Source: Patescibacteria group bacterium (GTDB lineage Bacteria; Patescibacteriota; Kazan-3B-28; UBA10110). Taken from it: 45,287 bases of DNA. The stretch is from assembly GCA_043802665.1 (NCBI GenBank), contig JAZDKW010000015.1, forward strand, positions 1 through 45,287. The letters are read 5' to 3'. Made by a program: the position numbers and the translations under genes. A model generated the notes under the pieces. The model saw only the letters and a list, made by a program, of their open reading frames with translations, searched no databases and was not told the origin of the DNA. Position 1 is the stretch's first letter; each line of letters opens with the position of its first letter. Below, in pieces: positions 2,714 through 45,112 of this stretch.

Positions 2714-2829
2714 ATTGAAAGATTATTTCTAAAAAAGTTCATTCGAAGTCAGGTTTTTGCCCATAAGTAATGGCCAGCGGAATCGAACTTGAACAAACAC
2801 ATGTTGTAGTTAGGCAACAACCACTGCTG

Positions 2830-3405
2830 TCAATATTCTTCTCTCCTTCTCTCATCTTCTCTTCTCTCGTCATCTCTTCTATCGTCGTCTCTCCTTCTCT
2901 CATCTTCTTTTCTCTCATCTTCTCTTCTTTCTTCATCTCTTCTTCTCTCGTCATCTTCTCTCCTCTCGTCATCTCTTCTCTCGTCGTCTCTCCTCCAGCC
3001 TTCTCTCATCTCTTCATCTCTTCTCTCATCTTCTCTCGTCTGGTATTCTATTCTCTCGTATTCTCTTCTCTCCTCTTCTTCCTCTCGTATTCTCTCATCG
3101 TCTCTCCTCTTCTTCCTCTTATCTTCTCCCGTCCAGTATTCTCTTCTCTCGTCTTCTTCGTCTCCTTCCTCTCGTATTCTTCGTCTCCTTCTCTCGTCTT
3201 CTTCCTCTTTATCCTCTCGTCTTCTCTTCTCTTGTTGTTCTCTCCGGTATGCTAATTCACCATTCAAAGCGTTTGACTCTATCAAGACTGCCCCAATAAT
3301 AATGAGAACAATAACGAGAAAAATAGGGAGAATTGGAATATCTGCGCGAAAAGTTATGGTCAGCAAGAGTGCAGCGATCATCAGAAAAAAGAATATCTGT
3401 CGCAT
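2830..3405 (-). CDS. Membrane-anchored protein with R/E/D low-complexity tail
   Basis: AGGAGGT SD and promoter upstream; two hydrophobic N-terminal segments then about 135 aa dominated by R, E, D (DERR repeats). Confidence 0.7.
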   Translation of the reverse strand: MRQIFFFLMIAALLLTITFRADIPILPIFLVIVLIIIGAVLIESNALNGELAYRREQQEKRRREDKEEEDERRRRRIREEGDEEDERREYWTGEDKRKKRRDDERIREEEEERREYERIEYQTREDERRDEEMREGWRRDDERRDDERREDDERRRDEERREDERKEDERRRDDDRRDDERREDERRREEY

Positions 3406-3543
3406 TTTAGCGACCTCCTTTTTGGGATTAGTTGGGTTGGATTGTCAAGGTGCCTTTCTGCCCCTATTTATATCAAGCCATTGTTGGCGATTATAGGTGG
3501 CAATCAAGTCAGCTATATTATGGCATATGGAGGAGTTTGTCAA
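3406..3543 (-). promoter_or_regulatory. Duplicated promoter/leader module, copy A
   Basis: TTGACA (3543-3538)-N17-TAATAT (3520-3515), leader hairpin, GCACCTTGACAA, AAGGAGGT; 27-bp and 20-bp blocks identical to 5343-5468. Confidence 0.85.
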
Positions 3544-5470: not shown

Positions 5471-5519
5471 GAGAATTCTATACTCCCACCTCCCCCAGCC
5501 CCTCCTCGGGCAGGAGGGG
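5471..5519 (-). repeat. CCCCTCCTGCC-GAGGAGGGG hairpin repeat
   Basis: Reverse complement nearly identical to 43080-43127. Confidence 0.85.
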
Positions 5520-5530
5520 AATTTCTACCC

Positions 5531-5562
5531 AACGGCTCAACGGGGCGAGCCGTTGAGCCGTT
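5531..5562. repeat. AACGGCTCAAC palindromic repeat, copy 3
   Basis: 13-bp stem AACGGCTCAACGG/CCGTTGAGCCGTT; nearly identical to 285-318. Confidence 0.9.
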
Positions 5563-5571
5563 CGCTTATTT

Positions 5572-11452: not shown

Positions 11453-12043
11453 ATGACCCAATGGTCACATTATTATGCTCGTAGTGTAGATGCTGATCTT
11501 TACATTCGCCAGCTATACGGTCAAAAAGAATTTTTGCAGGCGATTGTCAAAGAAGATCCCCGTAAAGTTGCAGAGATAGGGGCTGGCACGGGCATAATGA
11601 GCGTTTTTTTATCTCACCTGGGCATAGAGGTGACAACTTTAGATAATGATCCAGCGGTAATAGAGCAAGCAAAACTGACTCGTTCCCGTTTCGGGGGTAA
11701 TAATAAATTAGTGGAGGGCGACGCTTTTCAATTACCCTTCCCGGACAATAGTTTTGATGTGGTCTTTCACCAAGGACTATTGGAACACTTTTCTGACGAA
11801 CAAATTCAGGAATTAATCCGAGAACACCTGAGAGTGGCACCAGTGGTATGGGCGAGTGTGCCGAATAACCATTATCCCAATAGAGATTTAGGCAATGAAC
11901 GCTTATTGGGACCAGCGGCATGGGCAAAAATCCTACATCCTTTTACTGTGCTACAAAATCGGACTTATGCGCCTAAAATTTTCCCGAAATGGTATTTGCC
12001 TCGAGTGAATATCCAGTATATGGCCAAAATAATCCGAGGATGA
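11453..12043 (+). CDS. Class I SAM-dependent methyltransferase
   Basis: EIGAGTG motif I, GDAFQLPFPDNSFDVV, GLLEHF. Confidence 0.9.
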   Translation: MTQWSHYYARSVDADLYIRQLYGQKEFLQAIVKEDPRKVAEIGAGTGIMSVFLSHLGIEVTTLDNDPAVIEQAKLTRSRFGGNNKLVEGDAFQLPFPDNSFDVVFHQGLLEHFSDEQIQELIREHLRVAPVVWASVPNNHYPNRDLGNERLLGPAAWAKILHPFTVLQNRTYAPKIFPKWYLPRVNIQYMAKIIRG

Positions 12044-12044
12044 A

Positions 12045-12150
12045 CCCCGTTAGAAAGAAGTCAGTAAAACTGGACAATAAACTTAAATTCTGAGTAACTA
12101 AATTAATCTCACAGATTCATACCAATTTAGCACATAAATTTCTAACGGGG
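12045..12150. mobile_element. MITE-like element (106 bp), copy 1
   Basis: 12-bp TIR CCCCGTTAGAAA/TTTCTAACGGGG, flanked by TGAA at 12041-44 and 12151-54. Confidence 0.8.
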
Positions 12151-13574
12151 TGAACAATACCCAAAAAATTGCCTTGAACACCGGAGTCCAGTTGGTTGGC
12201 AAGGGTGTGACGGTAGCCACCTCTGTATTGATCATTGCTTATCTGACCCGTTACCTGGGGGTGGCTGGTTACGGTGACTATGCCACAATCTTTGCCTACT
12301 TAGGGGTATTCGGGGTAATGGTTGATTTGGGGTTGTTTGTTATCGCTGTTCGGGAGATCGCTAAAACTCCCCAACAAGAGAGAAGTATTTTAGGCAATAT
12401 ATTGGGTTTAAAGATCGCTTTGAGTGTTGCGGTTTTGGGCGGAGCATATCTTTTAACTTGGGCGCTCCCCTATACGGCAGTTGTCCGCCAAGGAATTTTG
12501 ATCGGAGCTATTTCACAATTATTCATATCACTCAACCAAGTGCCATTAGGCTCTTTCCAGGCTAATCTGACTATGTACAAAGCGGCTTTGTCGGATGTGG
12601 TGGGCAGATTGGCAATGTTGGGATTAGTCTGGTGGCTCATTTACACCCAGAGCGGTCTGTTGGGTATGATTTGGGCAGTGGCGGCGGCTAATGCCGTGGT
12701 GCTACTGCTGAATATCATTATGGTGGGGGCAAAGTACTGGTTGTTGCCTTTGTTTGAATGGCCGCGCTGGAAAAAGTTGTTCGTGGCGGCCTTACCAATG
12801 GGGGTTGTGATGGCCCTGGGAGTAATTTATTTTCGGATAGACATTTTATTATTAGCCGCTATCAAAGGGAGTTTCGCTGTTGGGATTTATAGCGCGCCAT
12901 ACAAGGCTTTAGAGGTGCTTTTGGCTGTTCCCAGTATATTTATGAGCTCTGTTTTACCAGTAATGACTATTGCGTTAGCCAAATCCACAATGGAAGCCGC
13001 CCGGATATTCCAAAAAGCTTTTAATTTTCTAAGTCTTGCAGCCCTGCCTTTAATCGCAGGGACTTTAGTGGCGGCCACACCGGTGATGTTGCTCATTGCT
13101 GGGCAAGATTTTATATTATCAGGGCCTATTTTACGCGTTCTCATTTTGGCTATTGGCGGATCGTTCTTAAATAGTGTGATGATCTATACTATCATGGCTG
13201 CTAATCAGCAGTCGCGATTGATTACACCATATGTGTTAGCAGTGGTTTTTAATGTGGCGGCCAACTTATTGTTGATTCCCCGATTTTCTTACTGGGGGGC
13301 GGCTGTTGTTACGGTGGCAACAGAATTCTGGGTGTTGGTGGCAAGTATGTATATAGTGTGGAAGTATTTGCACTTCTCGGTTGATTGGCGCGTATTCAGT
13401 AAAACTCTTTTTTGTAGTGCGGTGATGGGAGGGCTACTGTATTACCTCAGAGATTTAGCAGTTTGGTGGATTGCGCTAATCGGGGTCGGCGTTTATGGTG
13501 GGTTGGTTATGCTAACTCGGGCAGTGACCTGGGCAGAGATTTTAGAAATATTGCCCCGTTGGGCTAAAAATTAA
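12150..13574 (+). CDS. Wzx-type polysaccharide flippase
   Basis: Many TM segments; TRYLGVAGYGDY, DLGL...REIA, YFRIDILLL, VGIYSAPYK, LLIPRFSYWGAA; GTG start formed at the MITE end. Confidence 0.9.
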   Translation: MNNTQKIALNTGVQLVGKGVTVATSVLIIAYLTRYLGVAGYGDYATIFAYLGVFGVMVDLGLFVIAVREIAKTPQQERSILGNILGLKIALSVAVLGGAYLLTWALPYTAVVRQGILIGAISQLFISLNQVPLGSFQANLTMYKAALSDVVGRLAMLGLVWWLIYTQSGLLGMIWAVAAANAVVLLLNIIMVGAKYWLLPLFEWPRWKKLFVAALPMGVVMALGVIYFRIDILLLAAIKGSFAVGIYSAPYKALEVLLAVPSIFMSSVLPVMTIALAKSTMEAARIFQKAFNFLSLAALPLIAGTLVAATPVMLLIAGQDFILSGPILRVLILAIGGSFLNSVMIYTIMAANQQSRLITPYVLAVVFNVAANLLLIPRFSYWGAAVVTVATEFWVLVASMYIVWKYLHFSVDWRVFSKTLFCSAVMGGLLYYLRDLAVWWIALIGVGVYGGLVMLTRAVTWAEILEILPRWAKN

Positions 13575-36636: not shown

Positions 36637-37898
36637 CAGAATATCTTAGTTAGTAACCAAACATCAAAAAACACCATTAGCGCCACTGCACCAATTCCCA
36701 ATAAGTTACTTCCCCACTTGTTGGTGTGGTGGCCCATAACTCGTTGATCATTAGTAATTAGTAGAAGAATTATCACTAAAATAGGAGTTAAAATTCCGTT
36801 CAACACTTGGGTGTACAGCATCATTATCATCGGAGAGATATTAATAAACATTAAGAAGCTACCAATTAACAAGGAGCCTGCTATAACGCTGTAAAACCCT
36901 CGGGCTTGTTTCAAATGTTTGCTTAATCCTCCTGGCCAATTGAATGCTTCGGCCACCGAGTAAGCGGTAGAAGAGGCTAGCACGGGTATCCCGATCAGGC
37001 CGGAACCGATGATACCAAGAGCAAAAGCCAGAAAAGCCCACTGGCCCACCAGCGGTTTCAACAATAAAGCGGCCTGGGCGGCGCTGGTGATAAATTGATC
37101 CCCCCGCAATATAGTAGCGGCCAAAGCAATGATGGATAAAGCTATGAGAAAGAAAAAAATGAATCCTATAACTATGCTACGCAACTCGGTTTTAATGTCT
37201 TTAACGCGTTTTTTGCCCTCTACCTCTTCGGTATTTTGCCAGAAGATAAGACAAGGCGAGATAGTAGTGCCCAGTAAAGCGACCGTCGCTAATAACCAGA
37301 TATCGGAACCGATAAATTGAATGGGCCAGATCTCTTGCCAGGCCGTTGGCCAGCTAACCTGGATATTCAACACCGCGACTATATAAAACACCAGCGCTAA
37401 GGTTAGCCACAGCAAATAGCGGCTGATTTTTGGATAGTTATTTTTAATTAGGATAGTTGCCAAGGTCAGCGCAACAGGCAGAACCCACCACTCCCAGGCG
37501 ATCTTGGTAAAGATTTGCAAGATCTCTGCCATGGCCGACACATTAGCACCAATGGCGGCGATATTACAGACAGCTAAGATGGTTACTACTAACCCAGCCA
37601 CTCCCGCCCCGTAGCGATATTTAATAATCTTGGTCAGGCCCTGGTGAGTTTTTTCGCCGATTCGGGCGCTCATTTCCTCTATGGCGACAACAGCAGGAAT
37701 GATCAGGGCTAAAAGCCAAACGAGACCAAAACCAGTTACAGCCCCTACTTGAGCAAGGGTAGTAATGCCGGCGGGGTCATTACTGGCTGATCCGGTGATC
37801 ATTCCAGTTTTGATCGCCGATAGCCAACCTAACTTACCCGCAACAACATTTTTGTGGTAAGTTACAACTTGATGATATCTCGATATAATTTTAGCCAT
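36636..37898 (-). CDS. Nramp-related divalent metal transporter
   Basis: SNDPAGI, EMSARIG, GTTISP, about 11 TM segments. Confidence 0.88.
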   Translation of the reverse strand: MAKIISRYHQVVTYHKNVVAGKLGWLSAIKTGMITGSASNDPAGITTLAQVGAVTGFGLVWLLALIIPAVVAIEEMSARIGEKTHQGLTKIIKYRYGAGVAGLVVTILAVCNIAAIGANVSAMAEILQIFTKIAWEWWVLPVALTLATILIKNNYPKISRYLLWLTLALVFYIVAVLNIQVSWPTAWQEIWPIQFIGSDIWLLATVALLGTTISPCLIFWQNTEEVEGKKRVKDIKTELRSIVIGFIFFFLIALSIIALAATILRGDQFITSAAQAALLLKPLVGQWAFLAFALGIIGSGLIGIPVLASSTAYSVAEAFNWPGGLSKHLKQARGFYSVIAGSLLIGSFLMFINISPMIMMLYTQVLNGILTPILVIILLLITNDQRVMGHHTNKWGSNLLGIGAVALMVFFDVWLLTKIF

Positions 37899-38704
37899 TC
37901 CTGTAGGTTAAGAGTTTGGGCGCGCCGGTCAGACGCAATGCCACTGACCGTTAAAATATTTTTGATGGTATCAACATCTAAATTGAGTCCTCCGGCCAAA
38001 GAGTTGTGAATCTGCTTACGGCGCTCCCCGAAGCCGGCTTTAACGATTCTAAAGAACTTTTTCTCATCTACTGTGGCAGGCAATTTTTTATGCGGAGTAA
38101 TCCGAATGATTGCCGAGTCTACTTTAGGGATGGGCCAGAAATCTTGTTTGGGGATGATAGCAATAATTTCGGGGTGGCTATAAAATTGGACTGCCACACT
38201 TAAAATGTTAGCTTCTGGCGGGGTGGCCACGATGCGTTCAGCCACTTCTTTCTGCACCATTAATACCATCATAGCAGGGCGATATGCGCTTTCTAAGAAA
38301 AAGCGGATAATTGCTGAAGTTAAATAATAAGGGAGATTGGAGACTAATTTATATTTTCTGTCCGGAAAATATTCCTGGAAGAACAGGTTGTCTAAAGTCA
38401 GGGCGTTGCTCTCTATGATTCTGATGTTGGTTAGATCCGAATTTAGACTTCGGCAGGCCTTGGCCATAATGGGGTCTTTTTCGACGGCGATAACTCGGTT
38501 TGCGGAGAGAGCCAGTTCACGGGTAAGGGTGCCCAGCCCCGGGCCAATCTCTAAAATTTCATCCTGGTCGTTCACTTGAGCGGCTTGAATAATCTGGGTC
38601 AGTACGGAGCGGTTGATTAAAAAATGTTGCCCGAGTCTTTTTTGGGCAAACGTTTGATATTCCCGGAGAATCTGCCGAATTGTTACCAGATCAGTAAGGT
38701 CCAT
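37862..38704 (-). CDS. rsmA: 16S rRNA adenine dimethyltransferase KsgA
   Basis: KRLGQHFL, EIGPGLGTLT, SNLPYY, MVQKEVAERI, PKVDSA; ATG formed at the MITE end. Confidence 0.97.
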   Translation of the reverse strand: MDLTDLVTIRQILREYQTFAQKRLGQHFLINRSVLTQIIQAAQVNDQDEILEIGPGLGTLTRELALSANRVIAVEKDPIMAKACRSLNSDLTNIRIIESNALTLDNLFFQEYFPDRKYKLVSNLPYYLTSAIIRFFLESAYRPAMMVLMVQKEVAERIVATPPEANILSVAVQFYSHPEIIAIIPKQDFWPIPKVDSAIIRITPHKKLPATVDEKKFFRIVKAGFGERRKQIHNSLAGGLNLDVDTIKNILTVSGIASDRRAQTLNLQEWLKLYRDIIKL

Positions 38705-38821
38705 CCCGTTAGAAGCAGGGAGTCCAGGGCTCCCGACTGGTTAACAATAAGGTATCTGATAATAAATTAGTTATTGAGTGATTCATATAGTTTAGTGCTT
38801 GGAAGAGTGCTTCTAACGGGA
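38704..38821. mobile_element. MITE-like element (118 bp), copy 2
   Basis: 14-bp TIR TCCCGTTAGAAGCA/TGCTTCTAACGGGA, flanked by TCCA at 38700-03 and 38822-25. Confidence 0.8.
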
Positions 38822-38826
38822 TCCAT

Positions 38827-43078: not shown

Positions 43079-43079
43079 T

Positions 43080-43575
43080 CCCCTCCTGCCTGAGGAGGGG
43101 TTGGGGGAGGAGGGAGTATAATTTCTCCAATTTTGTAAAATCAATAAAACTTTTCTTGTCACCCATTTGCCTGCCCCGAGTATTTGGGGCGCCGCCAAAT
43201 CCTTTTCTGTTACTTTCCCGAGCCTGCCCGTGCCGGGCTTTGACGGCCAGGGGAAAGTAACCAAAGTCTCCAGGCAGTCGTCGAGGCTATGAAATGGCAA
43301 AAATCTCTGGGTGTTAATGGGCCAAACTCAGCCGATATGCCATCGGCCTCAAACATAGCCCTCACCCACAGAGATTTTACTCCCGACTTTACTAAAGCTA
43401 CGACGGGCAGGCATTTCATAACGCCTCTCCCTGCCTACCGGCAGGCAGGCTCCAATGCCCGGTTTTAGGTAGTAGAAACCCAACAGCTCATCCATACTGG
43501 GCAATTTTACTATTGGCAATCTGAATTTGCTCAATGGGTTAGAAGCCAAAAACGCTCGAGCTCCAATGGCTGGAT
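43080..43575. repeat. Composite of nested palindromic repeats
   Basis: Hairpin repeat 43080-43127; GTTACTTTCCC/GGGAAAGTAAC; AAAATCTCTG/CAGAGATTTT; CCTGCCTACCGGCAGGCAGG; blocks shared with 3621-3690 and 45243-45285. Confidence 0.8.
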
Positions 43576-45009: not shown

Positions 45010-45050
45010 GAACGGCTCAACGAACGGCTCAACGCGTTGAGCCGTTCGTT
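45010..45050. repeat. AACGGCTCAAC palindromic repeat, copy 5
   Basis: Perfect 32-bp palindrome 45019-45050 plus an extra tandem GAACGGCTCAAC. Confidence 0.9.
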
Positions 45051-45112
45051 TTGTCATTCCGACCGGAGTGGAGGGATCTGGTCGCTTTGAAAGCGACCCT
45101 AAGTTATTTTGC

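Follow-up and report, generated by a model that had tools for sequence, protein, structure and literature searches.

A short sequence with inverted ends stands exactly where a class I methyltransferase gene meets a flippase gene in the 45,287-nucleotide stretch of Patescibacteria DNA analysed here (the window), and this locus raises the question of what kind of element can enter a start codon and leave the genes on both sides intact. The original prediction was that a 106-bp insert lies between TGAA repeats at a former ATGA overlap of the two genes, and the window sequence is as described: copy 1 has inverted ends and a flanking TGAA duplication (Table 1), with junctions that read ...GGA-TGAA-[CCCCGTTAGAAAG ... 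ATTTCTAACGGGG]-TGAA-CAATACC. The left TGAA retains both the methyltransferase stop (TGA, 12041-12043) and the old flippase ATG. On the right, the last G of copy 1 and the duplicated TG form a GTG, so that an RTG made of the terminal purine and the right TGAA takes the codon position of the old start. Both genes are intact, as predicted: their products have Pfam matches, with the Polysacc_synt profile match opening at flippase residue 10, and the flippase N-terminus (MNNTQKIALN) agrees with orthologues that lack the element. The old ATG does open a 17-aa peptide, as foreseen; its ORF terminates at 12091-12093, 57 nt ahead of the GTG, and is the only gene content of copy 1.

Table 1. Features of the copy 1 junction and of copy 2, in window coordinates.
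Feature	Position	Strand	Basis or remark
Upstream gene, class I methyltransferase	11453..12043	+	ORF list; Pfam Methyltransf_25/11, Methyltransf_25 E 4.2e-17
Old flippase ATG, now heading the 17-codon ORF MNPVRKKSVKLDNKLKF* through the left arm	12040..12093	+	Translation
Left target-site duplication copy, TGAA, 4 bp	12041..12044		Single copy at the empty sites of G003, G008 and G006
Gene-less element copy 1, subfamily B, C...G end type	12045..12150		106 bp; orthologous junction empty in 5 related genomes
Left 13-nt arm CCCCGTTAGAAAG	12045..12057	+	Family-wide arm is 13 bp
Right 13-nt arm ATTTCTAACGGGG; final G is base 1 of the rebuilt start	12138..12150	+	Stem predicted in RNA and DNA folds
Right duplication copy, TGAA	12151..12154		Window sequence
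Wzx-type flippase gene, rebuilt GTG start	12150..13574	+	Polysacc_synt, E 3e-22
Copy 2, 118 bp, subfamily A, T...A end type	38704..38821		TCCA duplication at 38700-38703 and 38822-38825

The arms of copy 1 are complementary at 12 of 13 end positions, and the stretch folds with z scores of -4.0 as RNA and -4.6 as DNA, equalled by none of 200 shuffles. An Rfam scan of 11500-12700 (E up to 10) gave no match on copy 1; one match to CRISPR-DR6 lies off the element and was dismissed as chance (15.5 bits against a threshold of 39). Between 11800 and 12400, a promoter scan returned no promoter-like sites and a terminator scan returned one weak minus-strand site that did not rise above shuffles. Four sequencing runs contain short Logan contigs, mostly from other family members with the same arms and other fillings, and one such member sits in an RNA-library contig; none of the Logan contigs of these runs spans the copy 1 site.

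Related genomes show what the junction looks like without the element (hereafter, G000 is the 626-kb genome of the window, G001 onward are related genomes, and C numbers are contigs). The empty orthologous sites that had been predicted were found in G003, G008, G006, G001, and G002. The flippase junction of G003 reads ...CGAACG-TGAA-CAATACC..., and the other four carry R/T-TGA-R stop/start overlaps, likewise insert-free. G000 has two copies of TGAA where G003, G008, and G006 have one, and one TGAA together with the element accounts exactly for the difference between the filled and empty alleles. The flippase start codon at the empty sites begins with the R of R-TGA-A. The element went into an R-TGA-A stop/start overlap with a 4-bp TGAA duplication. 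The congeners G004 and G005 hold a 106-bp orthologue of copy 1 (74-77% identity), and the insert has been kept at the flippase site in three species. In genus g3, the same junction was entered independently by a different insert, whose duplication is TGAG. Copy 1 is therefore MITE-like in its inverted ends, its empty-site-confirmed duplication, its small size, its multi-copy occurrence, and its lack of genes.

The prediction that copy 2 docks in the same way at rsmA also holds. It rebuilds the ATG of the minus-strand RrnaAD (rsmA/ksgA) gene at 37862-38704, and its TCCA duplication is TGGA on the opposite strand; the site is empty (R-TGGA-CC) in G003, G004, and G005, and filled in G002. Elsewhere in the genome, the copies at C1:6230 and C8:5442 are G000-specific insertions with irregular junctions, and at the start codon orthologous to C8:5442, G002 has an independent insert with a TTCA duplication.

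These copies belong to a large family. The 10-nt arm core has 63 exact occurrences in the G000 genome, and the 11-mer was observed 30+33 times, compared to 1+1 for a reversed-pattern control; together with the fold statistics, this indicates that the copies are not due to chance. Across the order, 22 of 26 genomes have the 11-mer, with 2-69 occurrences each (control 0-3); the 99%-complete congener G003 lacks it. G000 contains 35 distinct arm pairs spanning 68-122 bp, of which 13 are flanked by perfect 4-bp direct repeats and 22 are not. A purine precedes the left repeat in all 11 G000 copies with TG-type repeats. The copies occupy dozens of unrelated genes and have only R-T(G/A)A-R as a common target; three of the 35 arm pairs enclose a tRNA gene. 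Contigs C3, C19, and C24 of these fragmented assemblies end at copies.

Docking on start codons is frequent: in 15 of the 35 G000 copies, the terminal purine supplies base 1 of a start codon that opens an ORF of 60 codons or more, and six further copies sit 7-13 nt upstream of a start. A tolerated-sites model predicts docking in 14.8% of copies, and the roughly 3-fold excess (binomial p 6e-5) is based on crude longest-ORF gene calls. It had been proposed that the element targets translation starts; the excess at starts is in line with this, and targeting and survival as causes of docking are only partly separated by these counts. None of the 15 docked copies supplies a classical Shine-Dalgarno (SD) sequence. 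In this genome, an SD core occurs at -20 to -4 in 21% of crudely called gene starts vs 10.7% of random positions.

The prediction further envisaged a long version that has these terminal inverted repeats and encodes a transposase. Long copies do exist, as plain 11-mer and protein searches revealed, with the difference that their product is a stand-alone GIY-YIG nuclease and not a classical transposase. The order has nine of them (275-287 bp, in seven genomes), each with a GIY-YIG ORF; that of G000 is at C16:3156-3431 (276 bp), with its 86-residue protein encoded at 3174-3431. The protein has 86-94 residues and Pfam GIY-YIG as its only domain (PF01541, E 9e-17 and 4e-15), with no DNA-binding domain beyond the 86-residue core. 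An AlphaFold model (pLDDT 85) has the GIY-YIG fold, for which UPF0213 BH0048 and the structure-selective nuclease Slx1 are the closest solved structures, with the I-TevI catalytic domain also similar; among solved relatives, the UPF0213 protein 1zg2 ranks first. Of the best 80 nuclease loci in public genomes, 70, from several phyla, are bounded by both arms with at most one mismatch, and the length of these loci is fixed at 274-283 bp, as expected if the gene belongs to the element. Based on these shared 13-bp ends, copy 1 is very probably a gene-less, non-autonomous rider within a family of very small mobile elements whose full form is about 278 bp with one GIY-YIG nuclease. Short and long copies resemble each other only over the outermost 12-26 nt, which does not establish descent by internal deletion. 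In the incomplete assemblies G001 and G004, which have 39 and 26 arm matches, respectively, the best nuclease match (E about 3e-15) is not a close homologue.

The nuclease reading frame runs on through the right arm (...L-T-G) to end at the duplicated TGA or TAA. This stop is right behind the terminal purine in seven of the nine long copies of the order and at +3 from it in 55 of the 70 arm-bounded public copies. All nine long copies of the order are followed by a host ORF of 105 codons or more, and in the public set a host ORF begins on the terminal purine in 29 of 70 copies and 3-12 nt later in 18 more. Since the nuclease stop overlaps or abuts the rebuilt start, the full-length element is an extra cistron within the operon, and the coupling is re-created. 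The idea that insertion uncouples translation thus fails for full-length copies and applies only to gene-less ones such as copy 1, in which the ORF is cut short. Two related ideas found no support. An open frame running through gene-less copies, from old start to terminal stop, is rejected: the ORFs of copy 1 and subfamily A are truncated, and the lengths of gene-less copies are not confined to values divisible by three. Nor do the data support the host's old start as the constant start of the nuclease, since of 28 long copies that still have an old start, 13 have it in frame and open, around the one-in-three level of chance. Long copies of the C...G type have mostly inverted-looking flanks (TTYA...TRAA), with a perfect direct repeat in 6 of 32.

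Short and long copies have the arm consensus Y-CCCGTTAGA-NNN ... NNN-TCTAACGGG-R, a 13-bp inverted repeat in which positions 2-10 are invariant family-wide and positions 1 and 11-13 covary. Each of positions 1-13 forms a Watson-Crick pair in no fewer than 68 of 70 long copies and 32 of 35 short ones; from position 14 inward, pairing is at chance level. Position 1 of the long copies is T-A in 37 and C-G in 31, and positions 11-13 have three to four pair types each. This covariation points to a hairpin form. An integron attC-like reading of the GTTAGA/TCTAAC cores was discarded, as the core order is reversed and there is no array.

Three other explanations can be weighed against these data. DDE elements typically have terminal inverted repeats and a short target duplication, and copy 1 could be an ordinary MITE of a classical DDE insertion sequence, its arms being transposase sites, its partner unseen, and the GIY-YIG gene mere cargo. 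The inverted ends and the 4-bp duplication fit this, and the assemblies are fragmented, with contigs ending at copies. However, no G000 arm pair encloses anything larger than the 276-bp nuclease copy, the public nuclease loci are bounded by exactly these arms at a near-constant length, and the variable arm positions covary in pairs, which two independent binding sites would not require; we therefore regard a DDE origin as very unlikely. An immobile host regulatory leader or processing RNA stem, conserved in place, would account for a strong stem in transcribed junctions and for an insert kept at exactly 106 bp in three species. It is at odds with presence and absence at orthologous sites with a 4-bp duplication, with the lack of any copy in the 99%-complete G003, with the unrelated host genes, with the long copies that carry a nuclease gene, and with the lack of an Rfam match. 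As a sole explanation, a host leader is already contradicted, and we give it hardly any credence.

The remaining alternative is copying driven by the nuclease itself, which would cut at R-TGA-R or at the stem base, with repair from an element-bearing template via 4-nt microhomology, the duplication being retained microhomology. GIY-YIG enzymes of mobile DNA are homing endonucleases, and these bacteria are thought to take up DNA. A TIGR01453 match to the nuclease (E 2e-7 to 7e-6) is weak and below cutoff, the same junctions have been struck independently in different genera, and many copies have irregular or missing repeats, all of which is compatible with homing-like copying. Against this, dozens of unrelated genes with just 4-5 nt in common are occupied, the protein is confined to its 86-residue core, and the arm covariation suggests recognition of the structure of the element and not of the target. 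We consider this route unlikely, if less so than the DDE origin.

We favor a mobile element whose nuclease acts on the element's own ends. The nuclease would recognise the paired arms as a hairpin or cruciform and cut at the stem base, so it would mobilise its own element as well as gene-less riders such as copy 1; this role in mobilisation is inferred. A hydrolytic GIY-YIG enzyme alone cannot join DNA, and therefore integration needs host functions or another, as yet unseen protein. Insertion would be near-neutral because the start is rebuilt and the host depends little on Shine-Dalgarno sequences. Ribosomes that start at the old ATG of copy 1 and move on across the left arm may unfold the stem in which the new GTG is hidden.

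Altogether, it is possible rather than probable that the family represents a new class of prokaryotic transposable element: about 278 bp long and the smallest autonomous mobile DNA of cells, encoding an 86-residue structure-selective nuclease, moving as a single-stranded DNA hairpin, inserting at stop/start junctions as a translationally coupled cistron, crossing phyla, and mobilising anything between its arms, including whole tRNA genes. If so, it would be a transposon pared to two 13-nt arms and one 86-residue nuclease, and it would show how a mobile element survives in an approximately 85-90% coding genome: by landing in the sole 4-5 nt where an operon splits harmlessly, restoring stop and start, and taking over the coupling for its own gene. 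A tRNA gene carried as cargo would replace the tRNA copy that was broken, making the insertion hard to lose. The family would also offer a natural system for how a purely hydrolytic nuclease integrates DNA, and for annotation, it would mean that many 5' leaders, short upstream ORFs, and odd GTG starts in ultra-small bacteria are its footprints. A small hairpin-specific nuclease with a 13-bp site may be useful as a tool.

As anticipated, the literature searched holds no description of this family, nor of one that rebuilds start codons, and the closest known systems each share part of its features. Correia elements of Neisseria and ERIC are about 100-150 bp long, with terminal inverted repeats, target duplication, many transcribed intergenic copies, and presence/absence among strains; they duplicate TA or other sites, and are linked to DDE transposons or have no known partner. 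Our family is likewise short, multi-copy, and variably present, with inverted ends and target duplication, whereas its partner would be a nuclease, as judged from arm sharing. To our knowledge, no report describes a Correia- or ERIC-type MITE that enters a start codon and restores it.

IS200/IS605 elements with their PATEs, and REP/RAYT systems, use HUH tyrosine transposases, have a subterminal hairpin at each end, and make no duplication. They resemble our family in hairpin-linked mobility, probably of single-stranded DNA, in tetranucleotide targets, and in small gene-less derivatives, and IS200/IS605 differ in that here the two ends pair with each other, are inverted, and are flanked by a 4-bp duplication, with GIY-YIG as the sole gene between the arms. 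Free-standing GIY-YIG homing genes of phages (Seg type, I-TevI relatives) have DNA-binding domains and one cognate site, with no inverted ends, duplication, or gene-less riders. Here too, a GIY-YIG gene with a fold like the I-TevI catalytic domain is a selfish insert between host genes, but there is no single cognate target.

In the available text of a MITE review and of a MITE survey of 183,232 genomes, the term "start codon" occurs 0 times in each. Rickettsia palindromic elements are described, in the available part of the source, as in-frame inserts in coding regions that become part of the protein (PMC10969869). As with these, a palindromic mobile element sits in expressed genes without destroying them; unlike these, our family sits at the stop/start boundary and re-creates codons.

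The closest parallel is the Ssn nucleases with their NTS/SRM hairpin repeats (Chenal et al., Nat Commun 2025, PMC11893778), which, if our reading is right, would be extended from a repeat-binding host factor to an actively spreading element. In the portion of that paper available, an Ssn gene encodes a single GIY-YIG domain of about 90 residues and has a dispersed hairpin-forming DNA repeat on both flanks; the authors remark on the IS-like repeat-gene-repeat architecture, and mention IS200/IS605 and REP/RAYT in the Discussion. The same portion describes no target duplication, start-codon docking, stop/start overlap, or gene-less riders with other DNA, and "start codon", "MITE", and "Patescibacteria" occur 0 times each. 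Further marks of the Ssn system are membership of the cd10448 clade and cutting confined to single-stranded DNA beside the hairpin. Like Ssn (about 94 residues), the protein of our long copies (86-94 residues) has a single GIY-YIG domain, and its gene lies between dispersed repeats. The long-copy protein of G000 is akin to other small GIY-YIG ORFs of the same genome (31-41% identity to P0001), and one of these ORFs (C16:909-1133) is separated by 81 nt from a hairpin that fits the published NTS core. G000 has four dRS3-type hairpins (C6:6981, C13:17708, C16:1214, C17:13396), all away from the long copy, whose nuclease is flanked by the 13-nt arms and not by self-folding SRM/NTS hairpins. The Ssn repeat is, in the text available, a self-folding hairpin of about 30 nt of the ATTCCC-N8-GGGAAT type, whereas here each 13-nt arm pairs with the other end of the element.

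Window positions 12036-12161 read ...GAGGA-TGAA-[C-CCCGTTAGAAAG ... ATTTCTAACGGG-G]-TGAA-CAATACC, which places a gene-less element (copy 1) at the junction of a methyltransferase gene and a flippase gene. The Polysacc_synt profile match to the downstream open reading frame (ORF) starts at residue 10, and the old ATG (12040) opens a 17-codon ORF that runs through the left arm (the 13-nt inverted end) to a stop at 12091-12093. The copy 1 stretch folds into a long stem closed by both ends (z -4.0 as RNA, -4.6 as DNA). Every detail of the description of copy 1 in the original prediction proved right, and a second copy behaves likewise at rsmA, as had been claimed. The observation of a start-rebuilding element in the window is thus confirmed.

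Window features, with positions on the forward strand
Feature	Position	Length or location	Details
Copy 1 element	12045-12150	106 bp	TGAA on either side
Class-I methyltransferase ORF	11453-12043	Upstream of copy 1	Stop is the TGA of the left TGAA
Polysacc_synt (Wzx-like) ORF	12150-13574	Downstream of copy 1	Start GTG is the element's last G plus the right TG
Copy 2	38704-38821		TCCA/TGGA repeat; docked likewise on the ATG of the RrnaAD (rsmA) gene
Inverted pair	5479-5520 / 43079-43120	42 nt	Rich in CCCCTCC/GGAGGGG
CT-rich tandem units	2822-3242	~400 bp	Imperfect 15-nt units (TCTTCTCTC...)
Repeated palindrome	282-325, 2627-2670, 5527-5570, 45010-45059		AACGGCTCAAC...GTTGAGCCGTT

If copy 1 is an inserted mobile element, as predicted, empty orthologous sites should exist, and they do. 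We searched 41 related genomes with the copy 1 junction region, inspected the junctions, and found empty sites in the congener G003 (...CGAACG-TGAA-CAATACC...), in G008 (...AAG-TGAA-TAATACT...), in G006 (...CTA-TGAA-CTACGCT...), and in both G001 and G002 (...T-TGAG-...). All five are stop/start overlaps (GTGA, ATGA, TTGA), and the flippase N-terminus at these sites is identical to that of the source genome. In two further congeners, G004 and G005, this site is filled by a 106-bp element from the subfamily of copy 1 (74-77% identity to copy 1), so the insertion is older than these species, which have tolerated it ever since; G004 now has A in place of the element's terminal G, giving an ATG start. 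G007, which belongs to another genus, also has this junction occupied, by a different element that is longer, shares the arms, and is flanked by a TGAG duplication. Altogether, these comparisons show that copy 1 is an insertion with TGAA duplication into an ATGA overlap, that stop and start codons were both kept, and that the element has been kept long-term; the interpretation originally put forward for copy 1 is supported. The R-TGGA-CC sites corresponding to copy 2 are empty in G003, G004, and G005. The start codon orthologous to C8:5442 of the source genome is empty in three congeners and occupied in G002 by an independent insert that is flanked by a perfect TTCA duplication. At this same start, G005 (L068, G005:C31) has an 83-nt insert of AGATTAGAG-type tandem units that is no family member; different insertions make this junction a hot spot.

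The source genome (626 kb, 28 contigs) contains 63 occurrences of the 10-nt arm core, and the 11-mer of arm core plus Y prefix occurs 30+33 times compared with 1+1 for a reversed-pattern control. Pairing of left and right cores gave 37 pairs, reduced to 35 distinct units (68-122 bp) by dropping two nested pairs in contig C9. Their interiors are diverse (a cluster of eight, a cluster of four that includes copy 1, and 23 singletons), and the outermost base pair is complementary in every unit (T...A in 17, C...G in 18). With genes called crudely as the longest ORFs of 80 or more codons (611 genes, 85% coding), none of the 35 units interrupts a gene. The terminal purine is the first start-codon base of an ORF of at least 60 codons in 15 of the 35 units, which we call docked, and six further units sit 7-13 nt upstream of a start. 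Eleven docked copies have a perfect TG-type repeat; in these, the left repeat is preceded by the initial base of the old start codon, A in 10 and G in one. Outside elements, there are 8094 R-TG-R-R sites, comprising 193 called starts, 1108 intergenic sites, and 6793 coding sites. The start-docked share is 43%, compared with 14.8% expected if only non-disruptive sites survive (p 6e-5). This excess over tolerated sites supports the proposed targeting of start codons to some extent, with evidence that is only moderate because the gene calls are crude.

A long copy with the same terminal inverted repeats, which the original prediction had proposed looking for, was found, and it encodes a GIY-YIG nuclease. 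Related genome G009 has a 285-bp unit that shares the arms and contains a 94-residue ORF with a GIY-YIG domain. The source genome's own unit (C16:3156-3431) is 276 bp long, and its 86-residue GIY-YIG ORF is intact (Pfam E 3.7e-15). Order-wide, there are nine long copies (275-287 bp) in seven genomes, with arms common to all. In seven, the ORF continues across the right arm (...F-L-x-L-T-G) and ends on the TGA or TAA after the terminal purine; in the other two, the stop is a TAA inside the arm. A host ORF of at least 105 codons follows all nine, starting on the terminal purine in seven and 4 nt later, in TAAATG, in two.

A public scan of one genome per species yielded more than 563 related loci, of which we analysed the best 80. 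These 80 share 65-74% identity with the query and, judged by record title, span many Patescibacteria lineages plus Omnitrophota, Elusimicrobiota, Planctomycetota, Thermodesulfobacteriota, and others; one lies on a 2.2-Mb contig, so a mis-binned ultra-small genome does not explain it. Both arms are present with at most one mismatch in 70 of the best 80, at lengths of 274-283 bp. Among these 70, the stop lies at +3 from the terminal purine in 55, and the host ORF begins on the terminal purine in 29 and 3-12 nt later in 18; after 23, no ORF reaching 60 codons was seen. Perfect 4-bp direct repeats occur in 27 of the 70 (21/38 T...A-type, 6/32 C...G-type). In the passage available, PMC12455944 predicts that "GIY-YIG catalytic domain" genes have moved out of Patescibacteria into other bacteria, and gives no more detail. 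Just inside one arm of many T...A-type short (gene-less) copies is a GC hairpin that varies in sequence with pairing kept: GGGAGCCC..GGGCTCCC, GGAAACC..GGTTTCC, and GGAAGCG..CGCTTCC (in the source genome C4:10728, C19:93, C19:689, C20:38701, C20:41202, C28:28213, and others). Part of this hairpin resembles the final ~23 nt of long copies.

The arms of the 70 public long and 35 short copies are Watson-Crick complementary at end positions 1-13 in at least 68/70 and 32/35 copies, respectively, and pairing falls to chance from position 14 on. Positions 2-10 never vary, position 1 is either T-A or C-G, and positions 11-13 covary, each showing three to four pair types. Such covariation is a requirement of a stem rather than of two separate protein sites, which makes a hairpin or cruciform the probable active form. 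The modelled nuclease (pLDDT 85) most closely resembles the stand-alone UPF0213 protein 1zg2 and Slx1, which is a structure-selective nuclease acting on branched DNA; this likeness fits, but does not prove, a nuclease that would cut at the stem base.

Copy 1 was probably mobilised in trans by the family's GIY-YIG nuclease, and its insertion would be harmless partly because the organism rarely uses Shine-Dalgarno (SD) sites. An SD core (GGAG/GAGG/AGGA at -20..-4) precedes 127/604 crude starts (21%) compared with 10.7% of random positions, and SD use appears low genome-wide; none of the 15 docked copies supplies an SD core. The coupling ORF of the full-length form would have been lost in copy 1, given the stop of its old-ATG ORF, and ribosomes that start at the old ATG and pass through the left arm could, hypothetically, still melt the stem burying the GTG. 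Some observations fit this scheme less well. Ligation is beyond the reach of a hydrolytic nuclease, which sits awkwardly with nuclease-only mobility. A perfect repeat is absent from 22 of the 35 short copies, and the flanks of C...G-type long copies are usually TTYA (left) and TRAA (right), resembling an inverted repeat extended by 4-5 bp more than a duplication. Two insertions specific to the source genome have irregular junctions; one copy lies at a synteny break, so recombination between copies accounts for some cases. Similarity between short and long copies is limited to 12-26 nt at the ends.

Elsewhere in the source genome, the arm-bounded units C4:6647-6750, C9:1330-1437, and C17:3241-3359 carry complete tRNA genes (Arg-TCT, Ala-CGC, and Met-CAT). 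Each is embedded in a degenerated copy of the tRNA that it carries, with the break in the T-loop or anticodon loop and nesting up to three deep; the cargo looks like a replacement for the tRNA destroyed by insertion. Units C2:11097-11197 and C17:1960-2062 adjoin the 5' end of tRNA genes, their terminal GGG forming tRNA nucleotides 1-3 with CTCG/CGAG flanks, the tRNA counterpart of start-codon rebuilding. Other small GIY-YIG ORFs, distinct from the family nuclease, also adjoin tRNA genes (C16:909-1133, C28:12604-12825, C28:14863-15099, C10:58415-58645, C10:58976-59224, and C7:4073-4285), several with tRNA pieces repeated on both sides, and seem to represent a second type of very small nuclease insert that targets tRNA genes. 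A motif like CCCCTCC/GGAGGGG occupies the stretch upstream of rsmA in G003 and G005, the position of copy 2 in the source genome, and is another dispersed repeat family.

The original prediction knew of no described family with such behaviour, and our full-text literature searches of main texts likewise gave no description of such an element, nor did looking up terms in a MITE review and in a large survey of MITEs. The element is real, its family is very widespread, and it appears to be undescribed in print. The element is an inverted-repeat mobile element with gene-less riders, a known kind, and there is a substantial chance that the family is a new class of transposon. It has general anatomy in common with classical MITEs, but its partner and target are different. 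Among published systems, Ssn and its NTS/SRM hairpins (PMC11893778) come closest. The source genome has four dRS3/NTS-type hairpins (ATTCCC-N8-GGGAAT; C16:1214, C13:17708, C6:6981, and C17:13396), two of which match the NTS core as printed there, and one of the four lies 81 nt upstream of the GIY-YIG ORF C16:909-1133; from these motifs, an Ssn-like unit seems to be present. The small GIY-YIG ORFs share 31-41% identity among themselves, including with the family nuclease, which together with the nearby hairpin suggests that Ssn-like units coexist with the family and are related to it. Unlike the present family, Ssn has self-folding repeats, and duplication, start-codon docking, and riders are unreported in the available part of PMC11893778; the two systems have in common a repeat-gene-repeat arrangement and a protein of the same type.
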